Of a stretch of 64,000 nucleotides of DNA, positions 4,159-63,854 are shown one piece after another. This stretch comes from an uncultured Candidatus Saccharibacteria bacterium (GTDB lineage Bacteria; Patescibacteriota; Saccharimonadia; Saccharimonadales; UBA10212): positions 5,795 to 69,794 of the forward strand of contig CAZMNA010000002.1 in NCBI GenBank assembly GCA_964567555.1, given 5' to 3'. The notes under the pieces were generated by a model. The model ran no database searches and had not been told where the DNA came from. It saw only the letters and a list, made by a program, of their open reading frames with translations. A program made the translations under genes and the position numbers. How positions within the stretch are numbered: position 1 is the first letter of the stretch; every line of letters starts with the position of its first letter.

Positions 4159-4307
4159 AAAGCTACCCCATATTCTAGCACGGTCACCCCATACAAAACT
4201 CAGCAAAGGATGGGTATAAATGGTGCGAGATACGAGAATCAAACTCATGCCTCTTGCTTGGGAAGCAAGCGTACTATCATTATACTAATCTCGCCTATTA
4301 AGCTCTT

Positions 4308-4384
4308 TGGAGCCACCTCGGGGACTCGAACCCCGGACCCCCGCTTTACGAAAGCGGTGCTCTAGCCAGCTGAGCTAAGGTGGC
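4308..4384 (-). tRNA. tRNA-Thr (anticodon CGU)
   Basis: Manual cloverleaf on the minus strand: GCCACCT/TA/GCTC-AGCTGGCTA-GAGC/A/CCGCT-TTCGTAA-AGCGG/GGGTC/CGGGG-TTCGAGT-CCCCG/AGGTGGC/T/CCA. Confidence 0.9.
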
Positions 4385-7040: not shown

Positions 7041-7116
7041 TGGCGGGGCGGACGGGATTTGAACCCGCGACCTTCTCCGTGACAGGGAGACGAGCACTCC
7101 GCTGCTCCACCGCCCC
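7041..7116 (-). tRNA. tRNA-Asp (anticodon GUC)
   Basis: Manual cloverleaf GGGGCGG/TG/GAGC-AGCGGAGT-GCTC/G/TCTCC-CTGTCAC-GGAGA/AGGTC/GCGGG-TTCAAAT-CCCGT/CCGCCCC/G/CCA. Confidence 0.9.
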
Positions 7117-8902: not shown

Positions 8903-8978
8903 GCCCTGGTAGCTCAGTGGATAGAGCGCCGCCGTCCTAAGGCGGGCGTCGCAGGTTCGAATCCTGCCCAGGGTACCA
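8903..8978 (+). tRNA. tRNA-Arg (anticodon CCU)
   Basis: Manual cloverleaf GCCCTGG/TA/GCTC-AGTGGATA-GAGC/G/CCGCC-GTCCTAA-GGCGG/GCGTC/GCAGG-TTCGAAT-CCTGC/CCAGGGT/A/CCA. Confidence 0.9.
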
Positions 8979-9907: not shown

Positions 9908-10822
9908 ATGAAATATGACCAAGCCGTAGCCGAATTTTTGGAGTACATGGAGCTAGAGCAAAACCGCTCTGCTAAGACAATTGAAAATTATAGCCACTAC
10001 CTGACCCGCCTATCCGACTTTGCCGGCGATATAAAGGTGTCTGATATAAATAGTGAGCTCATCCGCAAATGGCGCCTGTGGCTTAACCGGCTTGGCACTA
10101 ATACATCTGATGAATTGTCCAAAACTACCCAGAACTATCATTTAATTGCCGTGCGAAGCTTCTTAAAATTCTGCGCCAAGCGTGAATTTAGTGCCCTGCC
10201 CGCCGATAAAATTGAACTTGCCCGGACAACCCGGCCACAAGTGACTTTTTTGACTCCTGAGGAACTAGAAAGATTAACCAGCCAGACTAAAACCGAAAGT
10301 CTGTCCGGGCTGCGCGACAGAGCGATTATTGAACTGCTGTTTTCTAGCGGGCTTAGGGTCAGTGAATTAGTTGGTCTGGACGGCGACCATATTAATTTAG
10401 CGCGCCGGGAGTTCATGGTCCGCGGTAAAGGCCAAAAGGACCGGCCGATTTTTATAAGTAAAGAAGCAGCGGACTGGATAAGTAAATACCTAGAAAAACG
10501 TGAAGATAACGCCAAACCCATGTTCATCCGCTATAGTGGGCGCAGTAAAGCCGATACCAGCGGCAATTTTCAGCGCCTAACGGCGCGCAGCATCCAAAGA
10601 ATGGTTGCCCGTTATGCCCGTCTAGCCGGCATAACTAAGCACGTTTCTCCGCATACCCTGCGTCATAGTTTTGCTACTGACCTGCTTATGAATGGTGCGG
10701 ATTTACGCTCTGTGCAGGCTATGCTGGGCCACTCAAATATCGCTACTACCCAAATCTATACCCATGTAACCGATCCCCACCTGCGTGAGGTGCACGAAAA
10801 GTTCCATCGGAGCGGCAAATAG
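9908..10822 (+). CDS. tyrosine recombinase XerC/XerD-like
   Basis: C-terminal HTLRHSFATDLLMNGADLRSVQAMLGHSNIATTQIYTHV (R..HxxR..Y catalytic pattern). TGCTATAAT box at about 9872. Confidence 0.85.
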   Translation: MKYDQAVAEFLEYMELEQNRSAKTIENYSHYLTRLSDFAGDIKVSDINSELIRKWRLWLNRLGTNTSDELSKTTQNYHLIAVRSFLKFCAKREFSALPADKIELARTTRPQVTFLTPEELERLTSQTKTESLSGLRDRAIIELLFSSGLRVSELVGLDGDHINLARREFMVRGKGQKDRPIFISKEAADWISKYLEKREDNAKPMFIRYSGRSKADTSGNFQRLTARSIQRMVARYARLAGITKHVSPHTLRHSFATDLLMNGADLRSVQAMLGHSNIATTQIYTHVTDPHLREVHEKFHRSGK

Positions 10823-31082: not shown

Positions 31083-31102
31083 TTTACTTTAGAAAAGTAG
31101 GC

Positions 31103-31296
31103 AAATTCTTCACGCTTTGGACGGCAAAGCGTAGCAAACCGCCGGGCTGCGTTCAAACTGGAGCGTTCTTTACTTGCTAAAAAGCGGGCCAAGCCGAACT
31201 CCCTGACAGTCAGACATGTGTTTGGCCGCGTTTTTCCAGCTTCGCTTGAACTTCTGTTTGAGCCGATGCCCGGACCCAATTTTTCAGGCTCGAGCA
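31103..31296 (+). repeat. structured repeat family, diverged copy A
   Basis: Aligns along its length with 56515..56700 and 58356..58532, sharing blocks GCAAACCGCCGGGCTGCGTT, AGCGGGCCAAGCCGAAC and CCAGCTTCGCTYGAACTTCTGTTTGAGCCGATGC. Confidence 0.7.
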
Positions 31297-31472
31297 AACG
31301 GAAGGGAGCGAGGAGTGAGCCAAAAGCCCAGAACCGAGGACTGTTTGACCTAGCACCTACCTCTGGTAGGTGCTAGGGAGTCCCGCAGGTTCACTTTTGG
31401 CAAGCGAATAAGCGACCGTCTTTGTTTGCGAATGCCTGAGAGTTTTGGCGCCACCTTTTCGGTAAAAGGTGG

Positions 31473-32426
31473 TTAGTTTGAGTCCATGAAAGCCTGGGTT
31501 TGAGCGGTCATCTCCGCAATTTTGGCAAAGCTCGCTCCGCTGGTAAAAATAGACAGGATATACGTTTTGTTACCAGACGAAACTATACCTACGTCATGGC
31601 GGACATTGCCCAGATCGCCAATTTTATCTGATACATCGCACTGCGGGCAGCCAGCCGGTATGCCGCTGCGGTATATCTGCTGGCTCAGTGCGTCCAAGAT
31701 AAACTGCCGGCTGTCGCTATCAAAAAGATTACCGCTATAAAGCTGGCTTAAGTATTTAGTAGTGTCGGCGGCTGTAGTTACCGGACCGCTGGCTCTATTT
31801 AGAACCGTGCTGGTGAGACCGATAGATTTTAACTGCGTATCAGCCCAGGCCCAACCAACGTAGTCACCCACCGCCAAACCGCAAGCATTATCAGACACTT
31901 TTAGCATGGCGCTCACGCAGTCTTGCACGCTGAGCGTGCGGCTGCCAACCTTAAGCTTGGTGGTAGCCCACTGCGCATAGGGCAATTTTTGGCTAAGTGG
32001 ATACAGAAGTAAAAGTTTATAAATGCTGGCCGAGTTATATACTTGGCCGGCGTTGTAATTGGCTGTCACAAGATCCGTGCCCAAGCCCTGCACACTGACG
32101 GACCACATAACCTGCGGGTGAGACTGCGCAAAGCTAGCAATGATGCCATCCAGGCGGCTGCTTTCGCCAACTACCGGCTGAGTAGTTTGCAAGGTTGGCT
32201 TGAGCTGGAGCGGGCTGGCTACGGTCGTTTGCAGCGACTGGACGCTGGCTTTACTGCTGGTGTGGGCCGATACCTCAGCCTGGAAAATGGCTAGGTTGGC
32301 TGATAGTAAACTGGCCACCAAGACCAGGCCCACATAAATACCGGGTCTTATGCCACGTTTTTTGGCAAGACCTACTCTATACTCATAAGCCAGCTGACGC
32401 TGGCGTCTATAAAATAAGCGCTTCAT
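31473..32426 (-). CDS. membrane-anchored class A beta-lactamase-like / serine hydrolase
   Basis: SxxK (SIYK), SDN (KVSDNAC) and a KTG-like triad (DKIGDLG); N-terminal TM anchor. Confidence 0.7.
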   Translation of the reverse strand: MKRLFYRRQRQLAYEYRVGLAKKRGIRPGIYVGLVLVASLLSANLAIFQAEVSAHTSSKASVQSLQTTVASPLQLKPTLQTTQPVVGESSRLDGIIASFAQSHPQVMWSVSVQGLGTDLVTANYNAGQVYNSASIYKLLLLYPLSQKLPYAQWATTKLKVGSRTLSVQDCVSAMLKVSDNACGLAVGDYVGWAWADTQLKSIGLTSTVLNRASGPVTTAADTTKYLSQLYSGNLFDSDSRQFILDALSQQIYRSGIPAGCPQCDVSDKIGDLGNVRHDVGIVSSGNKTYILSIFTSGASFAKIAEMTAQTQAFMDSN

Positions 32427-55799: not shown

Positions 55800-56012
55800 A
55801 TGGTTCAGAAATTAATTAAAATCGGTACCAGCACCGGACTAATTGTGCCTAAAAAGCAGCTCGATGAGTTAGATTTGCGGGCCGGTGATGAAATTGACTT
55901 CACTATTTCCAAGCGAGCAAGCAATACCGTCAAGCATTCCCAACTCCTCAAAGACTTGGAGGGCTTCATGAACACTTACGACCAGGATCTTCAGAATCTA
56001 GCCAAAAGATAA
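55800..56012 (+). CDS. AbrB/MazE/SpoVT-type antitoxin
   Basis: KIGTSTGLIVPKKQLDELDLRAGDEIDF swapped-hairpin motif; its stop overlaps the doc start. Confidence 0.8.
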   Translation: MVQKLIKIGTSTGLIVPKKQLDELDLRAGDEIDFTISKRASNTVKHSQLLKDLEGFMNTYDQDLQNLAKR

Positions 56013-56395
56013 TGAATTACCTATCTGCAGAAGAAATTCTGCTGATTCACTTCATGTTGATCGAGCGCTACGGCGGCTCGCACGGCACACGCGACCTAGA
56101 GCGCATAAAGTCAGCCGCTGTAGCCCCTTCGCAGGAAGTCTTCGGACAAAAACAATACCCGACAGTCTTTGAAAAAGCTGCGGTTTACGCCTGTAATATT
56201 ATTGCTGATCATCCATTCCGAGACGGCAACAAGCGGACAGGGATGGCCACCGCCGCAATGTTTCTAAAAAGAAATGGTTATTTATTCACTGCACCTAAAG
56301 GTAAAGTCGAGGACTTCGCGGTCTATATTGCGGTTAAAAAGCCAGAGGTCTCAGCAGTGGCCGAGTGGTTCAAGAGATACTCCAAGAAAAGTTAG
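56012..56395 (+). CDS. doc: Doc (death-on-curing) toxin, Fic fold kinase
   Basis: HPFRDGNKRTG (Doc-type Fic motif). Confidence 0.85.
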   Translation: MNYLSAEEILLIHFMLIERYGGSHGTRDLERIKSAAVAPSQEVFGQKQYPTVFEKAAVYACNIIADHPFRDGNKRTGMATAAMFLKRNGYLFTAPKGKVEDFAVYIAVKKPEVSAVAEWFKRYSKKS

Positions 56396-56514
56396 CCACC
56401 TAAAAGCCCGCGCCAAAAAATAATTTTCAACCATTTGCTTTTTGGCAAATGCGGGTGTTCTTTTTCAAGCCCACTATGCCGAAGTAGCCTCCGGCTACGA
56501 AGGCTGTAAGAACC

Positions 56515-56691
56515 AAATATTTTCACACTTTGAGCGGCAAAGTGTGGCAAACCGCCGGGCTGCGTTAAAACTGGAGCGTCCAGAGCTCGCTTTAAAAGCG
56601 GGCCAAGCCGAACGCCTTCGCTTTGCTCAGTTAAACATGCGTTTGGCCTCGCCTTTTCCAGCTTCGCTCGAACTTCTGTTTGAGCCGATGC
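56515..56691 (+). repeat. structured repeat family, copy B (177 nt, identical to copy C)
   Basis: Letter-by-letter identical to 58356..58532. Confidence 0.9.
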
Positions 56692-56754
56692 CCGGACCCG
56701 TGGCGCAAAAAGACGTCGAACCAGTAGGATGAGCCAATGTCCGGAGCCAAAAAC

Positions 56755-56783
56755 TGTATTCACCGTCCCAAAAAATATATAAT
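56755..56783 (+). promoter_or_regulatory. promoter-like module TGTATT-N17-TATAAT upstream of heliorhodopsin
   Basis: CTGTATTCACCGTCCCAAAAAATATATAAT with the ATG 9 nt downstream. Similar modules lie at 58616..58644 and 60747..60775. Confidence 0.5.
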
Positions 56784-56792
56784 GCCAAAAGC

Positions 56793-57554
56793 ATGAGCGT
56801 TATAACTATGCCCAAACTGCGGCGGCTAAACCTAATCGCCGGCTTGCTCCACCTGGCCCAAGGCGTGGCAGTACTACTCCTTTCTACCAATTTCAGCTTG
56901 CCTGTTACCGGCGGATATTTAAAATTTAACTCGGCTACAAAACACTTAGACCCGGGCAGTAACACGCTGTTTCATTTGCCCCTACCCTGGCTGGTGGCCA
57001 TCTTTTTCTTCTTGTCCGCCGCCTTCCATTTGGCTATCGCCACGTTTTATAACAAAACTTATGTCGCTAATCTGGCAAAAAATATCAACCGCGCCCGCTG
57101 GTTTGAATATTCGCTGTCGGCCGGTGTCATGATGGTCGCCATCGCGATGCTGGTGGGTATCTACGACGTCATGAGTCTACTGATGATATTTGTGCTGGTA
57201 GCCATAATGAACCTCACCGGCCTCGCCATGGAAGTTTATAACCAAGGCCGACAGAAGGTTAACTGGCTGGCTTACAGGCTCGGCAGTTTGGCCGGCATCG
57301 TGCCCTGGCTGGCGGTGGCTTTTTATATTGGCAACTCCAACCACGTCGGCAGCGGCGCACCGACCTTTGTTTACTTTATTTTTGGCAGCATCTTTATATT
57401 CTTTAGCTGTTTTGCACTCAACATGTACTTGCAGTACAAGTGTATCGGCAAATGGGCAGACTATCTTTACGGCGAAAAGGTCTACATTTGGCTAAGCCTC
57501 ATCGCTAAAAGCTTGCTTGCTTGGCAGGTCTTCGCCGGCACCCTCCGCCCTTAA
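56793..57554 (+). CDS. heliorhodopsin
   Basis: 253 aa, 7 TM. Strong resemblance, from memory of HeR 48C12, to RWVEYSLSSSVM (here RWFEYSLSAGVM), GIVPW (identical) and SLVAKSALAWQIFSGTL (here SLIAKSLLAWQVFAGTL, containing the Schiff-base Lys). Confidence 0.85.
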   Translation: MSVITMPKLRRLNLIAGLLHLAQGVAVLLLSTNFSLPVTGGYLKFNSATKHLDPGSNTLFHLPLPWLVAIFFFLSAAFHLAIATFYNKTYVANLAKNINRARWFEYSLSAGVMMVAIAMLVGIYDVMSLLMIFVLVAIMNLTGLAMEVYNQGRQKVNWLAYRLGSLAGIVPWLAVAFYIGNSNHVGSGAPTFVYFIFGSIFIFFSCFALNMYLQYKCIGKWADYLYGEKVYIWLSLIAKSLLAWQVFAGTLRP

Positions 57555-57564
57555 AACTGCTTGC

Positions 57565-57592
57565 CCCGTCAGATGCTTTTGCATCTTTCGGG
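57565..57592 (+). terminator. hairpin after heliorhodopsin (terminator-like)
   Basis: CCCGTCAGATGC-tttt-GCATCTTTCGGG. A structural homologue with different apical sequence lies at 58588..58615. Confidence 0.45.
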
Positions 57593-57666
57593 TGTATCCC
57601 CCACCCGCTTTTTGGCGTCTGCTTATGCTTGCGCTAAGACATGCAATACCTTAATTTGGTCTAGTA

Positions 57667-58335
57667 ATGGGAATGGTCAATAAAGACAGCTCTGTTAGAC
57701 CTATGCAGGATGAGGCTAGGGATTTGCGTCTATGTGCGGATGGCCGCCATGACTTCGAGGAATTATCCCCCACCCAGCAAATAGCGGCCATAAGAGCCCA
57801 GCATTCGCTTAACGTCATGGATATGCGCGGTCATATAAGTCTGCGCGAGTGTAAAAGGATGTTTGAGTTCGGTGCAGGTACTGGCGGCTCCGGCTTTGTG
57901 TTAGCCCATTTAGCCCTAATTAATGGTGGCTGCGTAGAAGTAGTGGAAATAGAATCAGATAGAGCCAACGACATTGTACAAAGTGGCATCTTGCCGGCAG
58001 AAAGCGTCCACACCGGCGATGGAGTCCAGAGGCTCCAGCAGCTGGAGCGTGTTGGCAAAAAGTTTGATTTAATAGCCGCCTTTATGTTTGGGCCTGATCT
58101 TAGCGGCGCGCGCATAACAAGACTACTGCCCGCAGCGGCTGATGCTCTTGATGACGGGGGCAAATTATTAGTATCCTCAGACCCCGATACAATGCAAGCC
58201 GCCAGGATTGTGTGTGCCGCTAAGGGGATGGAGTTTGGCGATTACTCCCCGCCTCGGCGAACTTATTATCTATACAAGCCGGACAAAGTGGACACGATTG
58301 TAGTCCCTCGGGCAAATATGCCAGCTGGCTTATAA
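57667..58335 (+). CDS. class I SAM-dependent methyltransferase-like protein
   Basis: Motif I FEFGAGTGGSG, acidic beta-2 end VEVVEIE, FDLIAAF, DDGGKLLV. Confidence 0.6.
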   Translation: MGMVNKDSSVRPMQDEARDLRLCADGRHDFEELSPTQQIAAIRAQHSLNVMDMRGHISLRECKRMFEFGAGTGGSGFVLAHLALINGGCVEVVEIESDRANDIVQSGILPAESVHTGDGVQRLQQLERVGKKFDLIAAFMFGPDLSGARITRLLPAAADALDDGGKLLVSSDPDTMQAARIVCAAKGMEFGDYSPPRRTYYLYKPDKVDTIVVPRANMPAGL

Positions 58336-58355
58336 CCTCTAACCATCCATCCACT

Positions 58356-58532
58356 AAATATTTTCACACTTTGAGCGGCAAAGTGTGGCAAACCGCCGGG
58401 CTGCGTTAAAACTGGAGCGTCCAGAGCTCGCTTTAAAAGCGGGCCAAGCCGAACGCCTTCGCTTTGCTCAGTTAAACATGCGTTTGGCCTCGCCTTTTCC
58501 AGCTTCGCTCGAACTTCTGTTTGAGCCGATGC
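58356..58532 (+). repeat. structured repeat family, copy C
   Basis: Identical to 56515..56691. The downstream TTCAGGCTCGAGC block is shared with copy A. Confidence 0.9.
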
Positions 58533-58587
58533 TAGGGACCCATTCTTGGTTTCTTCAGGCTCGAGCCAAAAAGCTAGCGCTGCCTGC

Positions 58588-58615
58588 CCCGTTTGAGAAA
58601 AATTTCTCTTTCGGG
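58588..58615 (+). terminator. hairpin, structural homologue of 57565..57592
   Basis: CCCGTTTGAGAAA-aa-TTTCTCTTTCGGG. The flanks TGCCCCGT / TTTCGGGTGTAT are conserved and the apical stem is changed in a compensatory way. Confidence 0.45.
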
Positions 58616-58644
58616 TGTATTCCCCACCCCAACAGAGGTATAAT
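58616..58644 (+). promoter_or_regulatory. promoter-like module TGTATT-N17-TATAAT
   Basis: TGTATTCCCCACCCCAACAGAGGTATAAT, directly upstream of the helicase remnant. Confidence 0.45.
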
Positions 58645-58645
58645 T

Positions 58646-58777
58646 GTTAGAACCCGCTCGGGCATAAATGTCAAAGGCATAACGCACGTCATCAACCTTG
58701 ATCCGCCGTAAACCTACGATGATTATATTCACCGTATTGGCCACGCTGGCCGCGCCCTGACCTTCGTAGAACGCTAA
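58646..58777 (+). pseudogene. remnant of a DEAD-box RNA helicase C-terminus
   Basis: Translates to [42 protein letters not shown]. This corresponds to motifs V/VI (ARGID...HVINYDLP...YVHRIGRTGRAG) with an in-frame stop, and the first ~350 codons are absent. Confidence 0.7.
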
Positions 58778-58799
58778 AAAAACTCACGCTAACAAGCCT

Positions 58800-60629
<1,830 letters not shown>

Positions 60630-60746: not shown

Positions 60747-60775
60747 TGTATTCCCCACCCCAACCAAAGTATAAT
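60747..60775 (+). promoter_or_regulatory. promoter-like module TGTATT-N17-TATAAT
   Basis: TGTATTCCCCACCCCAACCAAAGTATAAT, with the ATG 8 nt downstream (leaderless-type). Confidence 0.5.
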
Positions 60776-60783
60776 TGCAGCAA

Positions 60784-63261
60784 ATGGCGAAGGAAGCTTC
60801 TGCTCGAATTAAAATTAACAAGCTGCTTGAGGCGGCTGGCTGGGAGTTTGGCAAGAATATTCAGCTTGAAGCTGGCATCAAACTTGAAGATCTAGGCAAC
60901 GACTTCGAAAATGCCAAACAGGGCTACATTGATTACTTGCTTTTGGACGACAAAGGCTTCCCGCTGCTTGTACTCGAAGCTAAACGCGAAGACAAAAATC
61001 CTCTGGATGGTAAAGATCAAGCTCGCAATTACGCTCGCAACAATAAAGCTCGCTTCATCATCCTTAGCAACGGCAATCTTCATTATTTTTGGGACACCGA
61101 ACACGGCACAGAAAAGCTGATTACAGAGTTCCCCACCCAGCAGTCGCTTATAAATCTAAAGGATTACCGGCCTAACTTTAAAGCACTGGCATCCGAAAAG
61201 GCTGATGCTGACTACATCGTGCTCAGCCAGATGCCGCGTTATGCGGACGATCCGGACTGGCAGGCCGGTGGTGCCAAACGTGATAATTTTATTAGTCGTT
61301 ACGGTCTCAAATTCCTCCGGCCCTATCAGCTGGACGCCATCACAGCCATTCAAAAAGCTGCGTCGGAAGACAAAGAGCGTTATTTACTAGAAATGGCTAC
61401 AGGCACCGGCAAAACATTAACTACCATCGCCATATCCAAGCTGTTCTTGCGCACCGGCAACGCCAGTCGGATATTGTTCCTAGTTGACCGCATCGAGCTA
61501 GAAATCCAAGCCAATCGTGACTTCAAAGTTCTCAAAGACGATTACACGGTGGCCATATACAAAGAGAAGAGGGACGATTGGCGCAAAGCCAGTGTAGTGA
61601 TCTCAACCGTTCAGACTCTCATGGCTGGCGATCGCTACAAAAAAGAGTTTAGTCCTACTGATTTTGACTTAGTCATTTCTGATGAGGCACATCGCTCAAT
61701 TGGCGGCAATTCACGCAGTGTATTCGAATATTTCATCGGCTACAAACTTGGTCTGACTGCCACACCCAAGGACTACCTAAAGAACGCTGGCGATAATAAA
61801 AATAGCCAAAAAGACACAGAGCGACGCCAGCTACTTGATACGTATAAAACTTTTGGCTGCGAAAGCGGCGAACCAACCTATCGCTACGACTTGGCCAAAG
61901 GCGCCAGTCAAGGTTATTTGATCCAGCCAACCGTTGTCGATGCCCGGACCGAGATTACTACCCAGCTTTTAAGCGATGGAGGCTATGAAGTCGAACGCAA
62001 AACCGAAGACGATCAAGTAGAAACCCAGGTCTATTTTAGCCGTCATTTTGAACGTAAATTTTTTAACGAAGAGACAAATGTAGCCTTTGCTAAAGCTTTT
62101 GTAGAAAACGCTTTGCGCGATCCAATCAGCCAAGAGCTGGGCAAAAGTCTAATTTTTTGCGTTAGCCAAGCCCATGCCAGCAAAATTACCCAGCTTCTTA
62201 ATAAAATTGCTGATAAAAAATGGCCCGGCAAATACAATTCAGACTTTGCCGCCCAGGTAAGCAGCAATATTGATGCCGCCCAAGACATGAGCACCAAGTT
62301 CACTAACAATAACCTAAATGGCACTACCAAATTCCTGGATGGCTATAAGTCTAACCGAACGCGTGTTTGCGTAACTGTTGGCATGATGACCACTGGCTAC
62401 GACTGCCCGGATCTGTTAAACGTTGCTTTCCTACGCCCAATATTTAGCCCAGCAGATTTTATTCAGATGAAAGGTCGCGGTACTCGCAAAGCTACCTTTG
62501 AATATGAAGACACAGACGGCCAAAAAACTGTCATGGGAAAAATAGGCTTTAAGCTTTTTGATTTCTTTGCTGTATGCGAATACTTCGAAACCAAATTTAA
62601 CTACGACGAGCAACTCAAGTTACCACCTACTATCGGCCTTAAAAATATAGACGAAGATGGTGACCCAAAACGCTACATTCAGGATGATCTGGACGCGGCA
62701 CAAGCTGATCAGCTAAAAACAATTAAAGAAGAGCGGGTTAGTGTCGAAGGCATGCGGGTAGATCGCGAAGCTTGGGGCGAGCGTGCCAAAGAAACAATTG
62801 CCGCAGACGAAGAAGTGGCAGAACTTTATAAGTCTGGCGATATTTATGGCGCAGAAAAAGCCGTAATAGAAAAGCATTTTGATAAAGCCCAACTTTACAT
62901 TAACCGTAGTCGATTTAAACAAATGCTTGGCCTAGACCGTCGCCCAAGAATTACAGAAATTCTAGAGTTCGCCTTTGGTGACCGCGACAAATTCCAAACT
63001 AAAGACGAGATTGTAGCCGATGAATTTGCCGACTTTGTCCAAAACGAAGCTATCGAACCCGAAAATTATAATTCTGCCCGAGATATTTTCAGTGCCTACA
63101 CTACTAGTGCTGAGGTTCGAGAGATCATAGACAGTGGCCAATACGGCAAGCTAGATTTTGCCGGTGTCGATATGAAAGAATGGACCGACCTACCCGATCA
63201 TCTGCGCAAACGTATCCCTGAGTACGCTCGAGATTACGTGCTAGAAAAAGTAGCTGATTAA
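60784..63261 (+). CDS. orphan type I restriction R-subunit-like nuclease-helicase (HsdR-like)
   Basis: N-terminal PD-(D/E)xK region YIDYLLLDD...LVLEAKRED, helicase motifs MATGTGKT and DEAH(RS), QMKGRGTR, and an EcoEI-R-like C-terminal region. There is no hsdM/hsdS in the window. Confidence 0.7.
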   Translation: MAKEASARIKINKLLEAAGWEFGKNIQLEAGIKLEDLGNDFENAKQGYIDYLLLDDKGFPLLVLEAKREDKNPLDGKDQARNYARNNKARFIILSNGNLHYFWDTEHGTEKLITEFPTQQSLINLKDYRPNFKALASEKADADYIVLSQMPRYADDPDWQAGGAKRDNFISRYGLKFLRPYQLDAITAIQKAASEDKERYLLEMATGTGKTLTTIAISKLFLRTGNASRILFLVDRIELEIQANRDFKVLKDDYTVAIYKEKRDDWRKASVVISTVQTLMAGDRYKKEFSPTDFDLVISDEAHRSIGGNSRSVFEYFIGYKLGLTATPKDYLKNAGDNKNSQKDTERRQLLDTYKTFGCESGEPTYRYDLAKGASQGYLIQPTVVDARTEITTQLLSDGGYEVERKTEDDQVETQVYFSRHFERKFFNEETNVAFAKAFVENALRDPISQELGKSLIFCVSQAHASKITQLLNKIADKKWPGKYNSDFAAQVSSNIDAAQDMSTKFTNNNLNGTTKFLDGYKSNRTRVCVTVGMMTTGYDCPDLLNVAFLRPIFSPADFIQMKGRGTRKATFEYEDTDGQKTVMGKIGFKLFDFFAVCEYFETKFNYDEQLKLPPTIGLKNIDEDGDPKRYIQDDLDAAQADQLKTIKEERVSVEGMRVDREAWGERAKETIAADEEVAELYKSGDIYGAEKAVIEKHFDKAQLYINRSRFKQMLGLDRRPRITEILEFAFGDRDKFQTKDEIVADEFADFVQNEAIEPENYNSARDIFSAYTTSAEVREIIDSGQYGKLDFAGVDMKEWTDLPDHLRKRIPEYARDYVLEKVAD

Positions 63262-63854
63262 GCTCGCTCGATAATCTTACTCAGCATTTGACTCAACGGT
63301 TTCTCGTCACCATTATATCCGGCGATACAAGCTGCAATGTTTTCTTTGCGGTCCATGTCACCCCATGCAATATTCCAGCCTAGGTCCTCAGCCAACATTG
63401 ATAGCAGCGTTCTTATCGCGCGACCATTTCCTTCGCGGAAAGGGTGCACCACATTTAATTCACTGTAGTAGTGCGCAAGATGTCTGACAAATTCATCTTC
63501 ATCTAAACCGTCCAGATAATTTTCACTTGCCAAAGACTTAAAGATTACTTGTAGACTTGGAACAATGCTATCAATTCTGGCAAAACTCGTCCTGCCCTTA
63601 CTAAATTCGATTGTTCTTATCTTTCCTGCCCAGTCATAAATATCGCCAAAGATGTAATGGTGCAGCTCGCAAAGTAGTCTCCAGTTAAATTCTTTAAGGG
63701 GCGGCTTGTCTTCAATGGTCAAAGTCGATATTTGAACGGCGCTAATCTCGGCCTCGGCTTGATCTAGTTCTTTTTGATTAGTTATACCAAGTAAATTCCT
63801 CAAAACACCCGTCTTTTTATTTAAGTACGGGTCGTTATCGACGTCGTAAGGCAT
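63258..63854 (-). CDS. Fic domain toxin (FicT/VbhT-like adenylyltransferase)
   Basis: HPFREGNGRAIR, a canonical HxFx(D/E)GNGRxxR motif. Confidence 0.85.
   Translation of the reverse strand: MPYDVDNDPYLNKKTGVLRNLLGITNQKELDQAEAEISAVQISTLTIEDKPPLKEFNWRLLCELHHYIFGDIYDWAGKIRTIEFSKGRTSFARIDSIVPSLQVIFKSLASENYLDGLDEDEFVRHLAHYYSELNVVHPFREGNGRAIRTLLSMLAEDLGWNIAWGDMDRKENIAACIAGYNGDEKPLSQMLSKIIERA

Follow-up and report, generated by a model that had tools for sequence, protein, structure and literature searches.

A conserved, structured intergenic repeat bounds a heliorhodopsin gene unit whose presence may vary in a natural Saccharibacteria population

Do the perfect direct repeats that enclose a heliorhodopsin gene in an uncultured Candidatus Saccharibacteria bacterium mark a unit that some cells carry and others lack? 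Saccharibacteria and other bacteria of the candidate phyla radiation (CPR) have tiny genomes with few recognised mobile elements, and the gain and loss of their accessory genes is poorly understood. We analysed a 64,000-nucleotide stretch of contig CAZMNA010000002.1 (hereafter, the window), in which a heliorhodopsin gene and a methyltransferase-like gene lie between two 177-bp repeats. An earlier, sequence-only reading of this DNA had proposed that the pair forms a cassette-like unit and that its repeats result from a very recent duplication or recombination event. A self-comparison of the window, shifted by 1,841 nt, gave a single unbroken identical run, 56515–56691 against 58356–58532 (177 nt), and a repeat search recovered the same 1,841-bp-spaced pair as 180 nt at 99% identity. 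Exactly two open reading frames (ORFs) lie between the perfect copies, at 56793–57554 and 57667–58335, which confirms the identical repeats around two genes that had been described. The 1,841-bp unit (56692–58532, + strand) comprises a repeat tail, the heliorhodopsin gene, the methyltransferase-fold gene and one copy of the repeat; it is missing from two contigs near-identical to the window (L022 and L025) and circularly permuted in two others (L004 and L017).

The repeat is not the anonymous sequence that it had been taken for, but a member of a conserved family. Both 177-nt repeats are copies of a structured, multi-copy intergenic element of about 185 nt, which we call E and which belongs to one Saccharibacteria lineage. 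A 20-nt core of the repeat occurs three times in the window, against 0.00 occurrences expected by chance. The third family member, which had been noted as diverged, was located at 31102–31277 and is 81.7% identical with 4 gaps. Alignment of the three window copies (A, B and C) with those of other contigs placed the limits of the family at about 185 nt, from AAAT(W)TTTCAC to CTTCTGTTTGAGCCGATGCCCGGACCC, and a covariance model (R1) was built from six distinct copies. In the window, R1 matched copy A at 56513–56700 (+ strand, 164 bits, E-value 1.6e-36; 117 nt past the doc stop codon), copy B at 58354–58548 (+ strand, 150.6 bits; 18 nt past the methyltransferase stop codon) and copy C at 31100–31284 (+ strand, 184 bits; 82% identical to A and B and 17 nt past the stop codon of a ychF-like GTPase gene). 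It also matched a degenerate E-like copy, E', at 31280–31483 (− strand, 22.7 bits, E-value 0.0013), which is convergent with copy C and begins at the stop codon of a beta-lactamase-like gene. The sequence of its 5' hairpin, CCACCTTTTACCGAAAAGGTGG, is that of the second E copy in contig L040. The region between the ychF and beta-lactamase-like genes consists wholly of these two convergent E-type elements (31100–31284, +; 31280–31483, −), which overlap by a few bases.

Outside the window, R1 detected full-length E in L013/L051, L042 and L040, the last with two copies; L013 is a Saccharibacteria metagenome-assembled genome (MAG) from GTDB. The two copies in L040 are convergent and enclose two small genes, and L042 has a weak second match, also convergent, as in the arrangement between the ychF and beta-lactamase-like genes. 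Weaker, reduced or partial matches were found in L044, L039 and L050, where solo or minimal copies preserve no more than the 3' 40 nt. L044 has a 'mini-E' (nt ~1330–1390), with the 5' start of the element joined directly to the 40 nt of its 3' end, and a solo copy of this 40-nt motif (nt 2476–2515) 1,127 nt away in direct orientation; the two flank a response-regulator-like gene on the opposite strand. Scanning GTDB with the 20-nt E core returned one Candidatus Saccharibacteria MAG and two unrelated chance matches, and 12 of the 18 hits in a JGI scan for the core were chance matches. Wherever a neighbour is visible, E lies downstream of a co-oriented gene, and most copies start about 17–40 nt past its stop codon: 18 nt past a ClpC-like gene, 25 nt past a 146-aa ORF and ~40 nt past a DUF2000 gene. 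The 117 nt behind doc are the sole long gap.

We found no described RNA at these sites. Rfam at gathering thresholds reported only 4 tRNAs in the whole window, the best Rfam matches to copies A and C at an E-value limit of 10 were at chance level (E-values 3.5–8.9), and ARAGORN detected no tRNA or tmRNA at E. The window tRNA genes (Gly-CCC, Thr-CGT, Asp-GTC and Arg-CCT; 4221–4384, 7041–7116 and 8903–8978) are not associated with any E copy. We also rejected a protein-coding repeat: E copies differ by 1-nt and 7-nt indels, and ORFs of 96 aa and 108 aa that run across E in public contigs belong to no family. A full-text literature search found no paper describing such an element in Saccharibacteria (CPR).

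The conservation of E extends to its predicted structure. Both RNAalifold and single-sequence folds give a 5' hairpin and, after it, a long stem of four helices, which is closed by the two most conserved stretches of the element, CCGGGC UGC GUUCAAA... and ...UUUGAGC CGAU GCCCGG. In the model-based alignment, 94.5% of cells were paired, compared with at most 58.7% when the partners were shifted by 1–3 columns; the structure is favoured here by the fit of the alignment to the covariance model. Seven pairs were changed on both sides, against 2.1 in shuffled alignments, and 0 of 500 shuffles reached seven. Covariation of the 5' hairpin was also visible in a MAFFT alignment made with no structure model, in which CACAC/GTGTG is exchanged for CCACC/GGTGG or GTAC/GTAC, and TTTG/CAAA for TTTT/AAAA. 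Pairing in E is strand specific (33 G·U cells versus 6 A·C), and the single-sequence fold z-scores were −2.6 and −3.9 for the sense strand but −0.9 and −2.5 for the antisense strand. The covariation and the strand-specific G·U pairs support a sense-strand fold of E. Together with the better sense-strand z-scores, the strand specificity suggests that E is probably transcribed with the upstream gene as an RNA of the 3' untranslated region type.

The end-points of the duplication coincide with those of the element. Identity between copies A and B begins exactly at the start of family homology (AAAT.TTTCAC) and stops after GATGC, 8–9 nt before the 3' end of the family: 0 of 177 positions differ, then 3 of 9. 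Past GATGC, copy A has the canonical tail CCGGACCC and copy B the variant tail TAGGGACCC. Copy A then passes straight into the cargo (GTGGCGC...), whereas copies B and C have a further TTYTTCAGGCTCGAGC in common after the tail. Homology past the tail was confined to B versus C, with a significant 19-mer; A versus C and A versus B were at the level of shuffled sequences. Both ends of the duplication are thus ends of E, the pattern that recombination between two E copies would leave when their flanks are unrelated. A random tandem duplication would not yield end-points that coincide with those of an element.

The same boundary fits another history, in which A and B are old E paralogues around resident genes, gene conversion has recently homogenised their first 177 nt and the contigs with other arrangements are graph walks or chimeras of the assembler. 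A sharp stop after GATGC is what the end of a conversion tract would look like. The coincidence of both duplication ends with E's own ends counts against this history, and we think it unlikely overall. A recent duplication or recombination event, as proposed from the sequence alone, is supported by the 0 of 177 differences in the window and by the 1 of 177 in one other sample.

That other sample comes from a set of contigs of the same population that we gathered by exact-protein look-ups; many are 99.8–100% identical to the window outside the repeat. The assembler k was 141 where contig names give it, and a largest k of 127 for the JGI assemblies follows from a 127-nt terminal overlap in L004. 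The full arrangement, with both repeats spanned, is present in L002 (from JGI sample 3300028556), L014 and L015, which come from three different JGI samples. In L014 (JGI 3300028573), nt 8949, which corresponds to window position 56615, carries C>A in copy A only, so the copies are not always identical. This single-nucleotide polymorphism (SNP) makes every 127-mer inside copy A copy-specific and, if the largest k was 127, the path through the repeat is unambiguous. The window itself seems to derive from a short-read metagenome assembly, and its repeat is longer than k, conditions in which a single E might be collapsed or expanded into an artefactual pair. Such an artefact, which had been named as an outcome that would undo the earlier reading, is extremely improbable: three contigs span both copies independently, the L014 SNP distinguishes 127-mers within E, and copies A and B differ in their tails and flanks. 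The two-copy duplication is not an assembly artefact.

Other contigs of the population show other arrangements, and their existence is an observation. L022 (ENA ERZ27245403) and L025 (JGI 3300031595) have an empty site, that is, doc, a single E with a B-type tail, the helicase remnant of the right flank and typA. They align to the window at 99.8–99.9% identity over 58353–59313 and 58353–59115, with mismatches at 58355 and 59093. The complementary, permuted junction is found in L004, from the same sample as L025 (3300031595), whose 1,968 bp equal 1,841 + 127 with a 127-nt terminal overlap, and in L017, which reads methyltransferase, E, heliorhodopsin. These are the deletion allele and circular junction that the sequence-only reading had suggested looking for. 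Both exist as contigs, although they are not proof of such molecules, as E (177 nt) is longer than k (141, or the inferred 127) and contigs of both kinds are also legal walks in the graph of a genome that carries the unit. They point to polymorphism without proving it, and could also come from coverage gaps.

The conversion of resident paralogues described above draws on this same property of the graph. Left flank–E–right flank and unit–E–unit would both be legal walks, and contig breaks at 56655, 56551 and 58496 show that the graph branches at E. Against this, one pipeline resolved identical repeats differently in two samples, as the full arrangement in 3300028556 (L002) and as an empty site plus a closed 1,968-bp loop in 3300031595 (L025 and L004), which is suggestive of, but does not prove, different read-pair support. 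Old neighbourhood of E and the cargo is hinted at by L013/L051, where E is followed by a DUF4238 gene in place of heliorhodopsin and then by a methyltransferase-fold homologue of 64–66% identity. Because this homologue lies downstream of E there, E and the methyltransferase-fold gene may be older neighbours than E and heliorhodopsin.

One contig suggests relocation of the unit. L007 (ENA ERZ27245396) runs from the 3' end of ychF through copy C to its last base and then continues with GTGGCGC..., heliorhodopsin and methyltransferase. The exchange point lies within the last 30 nt of E, and one private SNP is present on each side of the junction. No legal walk at k=141 through the window genome gives this junction, in contrast to those of the contigs above, and the 141-mers across it are absent there; these missing 141-mers and the private SNPs in both halves again speak against resident paralogues with a static arrangement. 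Copy C was unoccupied in all 10 of the 10 beta-lactamase-side contigs examined. The cassette-like character proposed earlier is matched by empty, permuted and copy-C contigs, which suggest, but do not prove, real alleles.

A second contig with an unusual junction was left out of the evidence as a probable chimera. In L016 (ENA ERZ27245404), nt 771–780 join the methyltransferase-fold gene, with 45 nt from the start of copy B, to an inverted gene of the Ymh family, which otherwise lies ~6 kb rightward, just past the window end. The join is at a 10-nt microhomology, GCAAACCGCC (window 58388–58397), and reflects a chimeric assembly or, alternatively, a rare inversion.

The exchange point in L007 and the stop of A/B identity after GATGC could also reflect a site-specific cassette system, in which the near-invariant 3' end of E would serve as the attachment site of a trans-acting recombinase, similar to attC or to elements that exploit Xer, and promoter-bearing gene units with their own E would move between E copies. 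Several features of E would fit such a role: its closing helices are more conserved than pairing demands, the solo and minimal copies (L044, L039 and L050) retain only the 3' 40 nt, and the long imperfect hairpin just past stop codons resembles attC. The window also encodes a Xer-like tyrosine recombinase (9908–10822, + strand; Pfam Phage_integrase, E-value 5e-45), the sole one among the window proteins examined, 46 kb from the unit. In NCBIfam, this protein matched XerC, XerD and archaeal XerA about equally and passed only the curated cut-off of XerA. It is a candidate enzyme for such a system only. By contrast, it scored 141.7 bits against the integron-integrase model, for which the cut-off is 265, so no integron integrase is present, and Pfam searches of the window and related contigs found no recombinase or transposase domain in the genes within or beside the unit. 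The E copies are scattered rather than arrayed, the unit holds two genes with promoter-like motifs of their own, and the abundant G·U pairs indicate folding as RNA. Moreover, the last 30 nt of E are also the longest identical block of copies A and C, which makes the exchange point non-discriminating, and only one contig shows the relocation. The observations behind a site-specific mechanism have simpler explanations and no enzyme accompanies them, and we consider it distinctly unlikely. A bolder form, in which E would be the attachment site of a previously unknown Saccharibacteria cassette-exchange system whose trans-acting, for example Xer-like, recombinase reads the folded 3' end, strikes us as very unlikely; it would be integron-like in function but have no IntI, attI or array, its units moving with their own E among E copies behind housekeeping genes.

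We instead favour, on a modest balance of probability, the explanation that recombination between E copies, the sole homology available, adds, removes or amplifies the unit. Integration of an E-bearing circle into a resident E in the manner of Campbell would give E–cargo–E, recombination between the flanking copies would restore the empty site and release a circle, and unequal exchange between E copies could produce tandem copies. Neither the unit nor the DNA beside it encodes a dedicated recombinase, so the event was most likely driven by homologous recombination of the host. What we infer in this account is the enzyme and whether the event was an insertion or a deletion; the anatomy of the locus, the E family with its fold and the existence of contigs in other arrangements are observed.

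Several observations weigh against recombination between E copies. L007 is a single 1.9-kb MEGAHIT contig joined in the longest stretch shared by copies A and C (30 nt), precisely where a chimera would form, a point that also fits the static arrangement; and homologous recombination between 82%-identical copies over 30 nt of identity would be inefficient. As set out above, the empty-site and circular contigs are also legal walks. An integrating circle would need an E matching the resident E over 177 nt, even though copy C has diverged by 18%. For 177 nt to show no divergence beside a diverged tail would mean either re-integration of a circle at its home locus or a recent conversion tract ending after GATGC. 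Finally, the heliorhodopsin genes of 72–86% identity in related contigs (L036–L038 and L057–L061) have no E nearby, and a role of E as the general partner of Saccharibacteria heliorhodopsins was rejected.

The first gene of the unit (56793–57554, + strand, 253 aa) encodes a heliorhodopsin, as had been called from the sequence. It matched Pfam PF18761 over its full length (E-value 2.1e-91; 306 bits against a cut-off of 26.7), with residues 9–251 aligned to profile positions 1–242 of 242. The heliorhodopsin retinal-lysine motif SxxxK (PMC9166423) is present as SLIAK (...WLSLIAKSLL...), as expected for the last transmembrane helix. Heliorhodopsins are common in the class of Saccharibacteria (PMC9166423), and among 4,461 homologues at an E-value of at most 1e-20, several are named by their source as coming from Saccharibacteria or Saccharimonadales. 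The 72–86%-identical genes (L036, L037, L038, L057, L058 and L060) are set among different genes in each of the related contigs; L058 has heliorhodopsin, then the antitoxin and doc, and E is absent between doc and the homologue of window 58576–58640.

The second gene (57667–58335, + strand) encodes a 222-aa protein that has a class I S-adenosylmethionine (SAM)-methyltransferase fold, as judged from structure prediction, and resembles TrmR and catechol O-methyltransferase (COMT). No model in Pfam or NCBIfam covers its own family, and the protein itself has no Pfam hit; curated methyltransferase profiles gave only sub-threshold matches (PCMT, E-value 0.026; Methyltransf_12, E-value 0.23). Profile searching identified 221 representative relatives at an E-value of at most 1e-3, 161 of these at no more than 1e-10, and among 50 relatives scanned, Methyltransf_23 matched 19 and MTS 18. 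One homologue, P0003, is 28–37% identical. An earlier structure prediction with 3 sequences was unusable (pLDDT 40.7), whereas AlphaFold (AF2) with 50 homologues reached a mean pLDDT of 92.6 and a pTM of 0.88. Foldseek searches of the PDB with this model returned 763 matches at an E-value of at most 0.001, headed by TrmR, Rv0187 and COMT (E-value 1e-8, TM ~0.5). The glycine-rich motif I (E/DxGxGxG) appears as FEFGAGTGG, in which G69 and G73 are invariant and G71 is at least 90% conserved among the 50 homologues. The label 'methyltransferase-like' is now backed by the predicted fold, the Foldseek matches and the Methyltransf_23 matches of relatives.

The heliorhodopsin gene is preceded by a promoter-like motif containing TATAAT, and between the two genes is a related hairpin motif followed by a T-run; the terminator-like hairpin and T-run after the heliorhodopsin gene (57589–57607, + strand) are part of it. 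The motif, TCTTTCGGGTGTATTCCCCACCCC...TATAAT, with a GGGTG/CACCC hairpin and a −10-like box, recurs at 56755–56785, 57584–57606, 58607–58646 and 60747–60777, in front of the genes for heliorhodopsin and the methyltransferase-fold protein, the helicase remnant and an 828-aa ResIII/HsdR-like gene.

On the left, the unit is flanked by an AbrB/doc_partner-like antitoxin gene and a Doc toxin gene (55800–56012 and 56012–56395, + strand; Pfam and NCBIfam), whose stop and start overlap as in Phd/Doc modules. The toxin matched Fic/Doc PF02661 (E-value 4e-19, 69.6 bits against a cut-off of 24) and the antitoxin matched doc_partner TIGR02609 below the cut-off of that model (E-value 1.3e-6), which bears out the toxin-antitoxin module seen from the sequence. 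On the right, a tblastn search with the helicase of L038 (E-value 2.5e-10) identified the C-terminal remnant of a DEAD-box helicase (58661–58774, + strand, 44 codons), which corresponds to residues 358–401 of the 404-aa helicase and carries an in-frame stop and a 6-residue deletion. It begins 128 nt past copy B and is covered by L022 and L025 with no mismatch. The truncated remnant is therefore real, as the sequence-only reading held, but the proposal that the repeat event had destroyed the helicase does not stand, as the remnant is unchanged in the empty site. That observation and the position of doc in L058, directly before the homologue of 58576–58640 with no E between them, make the truncation older than the repeat event and independent of it. 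The housekeeping flank continues with a TypA/BipA GTPase gene (58800–60629, + strand; Pfam). Farther right, the region resembles a defence or accessory island, with a ResIII/HsdR-like helicase-nuclease, a second Fic protein, a Ymh-family protein and several small ORFs (60775–63261, 63258–63854 and, in L014, past the window end), and it includes an 855-aa N6_Mtase/Eco57I/Methylase_S fusion.

How does E compare with known repeats and mobile systems? ERIC and REP sequences are intergenic hairpin repeats that are co-transcribed 3' of genes or between convergent genes, occur in either orientation, carry internal indels and are associated with local rearrangement (PMC3184786). E is similar to ERIC/IRU and REP/BIME in being multi-copy, 100–200 nt in length and folded into a long imperfect hairpin, in occurring in either orientation 3' of genes or between convergent genes, in varying internally by indels and in its association with local rearrangement; copy number, hairpin and both orientations are also those of miniature inverted-repeat transposable elements (MITEs). 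By contrast, E resembles no Rfam family in sequence, carries an additional 5' hairpin that covaries and has very strongly conserved closing helices. Terminal inverted repeats and clear target duplications of the kind seen in MITEs such as ERIC or Correia elements were not found in E; its 5' AAATWTTTCAC and 3' GCCCGGACCC are not inverted copies, and the flanks are vaguely A/T-rich.

The locus as a whole is similar to segments flanked by direct repeats that recombine in the manner of Campbell, such as rrn-flanked and insertion sequence (IS)-flanked segments and the MITE-flanked integron that may be excised by homologous recombination (PMC3184786): it has E–cargo–E and no enzyme of its own, and contigs of it show an empty site with one E and a circular or tandem junction. 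It differs in that the homology is just 177–185 nt of a structured non-coding element and in that the cargo, in the reduced genome of an episymbiont, is a sensory rhodopsin and a methyltransferase-fold gene. As with integron cassettes and attC, an ORF is immediately followed by a folded imperfect hairpin, the circular form of the unit has one site, and exchange is compatible with the 3' end. However, IntI, attI, Pc and an array are missing here, the unit has two genes with promoter-like motifs of their own, and E copies are found 25 kb from one another or behind housekeeping genes. attC sites measure 57–141 nt, compared with about 185 nt for E. In E, GUUCAAAC pairs with GUUUGAGC; these contain AAAC/GTTT, in which the R''/R' consensus (RYYYAAC ... 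GTTRRRY) was not recognised. Islets at the 3' ends of tRNA or tmRNA genes similarly have direct repeats of a structured RNA gene around cargo, with the left copy intact, whereas E is neither tRNA nor tmRNA, its unit has no integrase and the duplication covers nearly all of the element, not just a short 3' segment.

Other classes were also rejected. The genes between or beside the repeats have no transposase domain, which argues against an IS or composite transposon. A phage or plasmid origin of the unit is not supported: IMG/VR searched with two E cores gave 0 matches, blastn of the unit against plasmid and phage collections gave none, and the unit and its flanks do not differ in GC content. 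A diversity-generating retroelement was rejected by reasoning only, the repeats being identical and non-coding and the annotated neighbours including no reverse transcriptase. With no Rfam match and no terminal inverted repeats, and differing as it does from integron cassettes, IS and tRNA islands, E is outside any described family. By analogy, E would work like intergenic repeats of the ERIC/REP type, and the locus like any segment flanked by direct repeats.

Heliorhodopsins in Saccharibacteria were already known; the E family and the suggested natural polymorphism of a heliorhodopsin unit bounded by it are new. E is a conserved RNA or DNA element of CPR bacteria, ~185 nt long, with a covariation-supported structure and no Rfam family. 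The locus suggests a simple way of shuffling accessory genes that needs no recombinase; should exchange at E turn out to be site-specific, it would represent a new cassette system. The locus also suggests that, within one natural population, some cells carry a heliorhodopsin gene that others lack, with the break points inside E. The function of heliorhodopsins is still debated and, if this presence/absence polymorphism is true, comparing its distribution across samples with the environment could probe the role of heliorhodopsin in an episymbiont.

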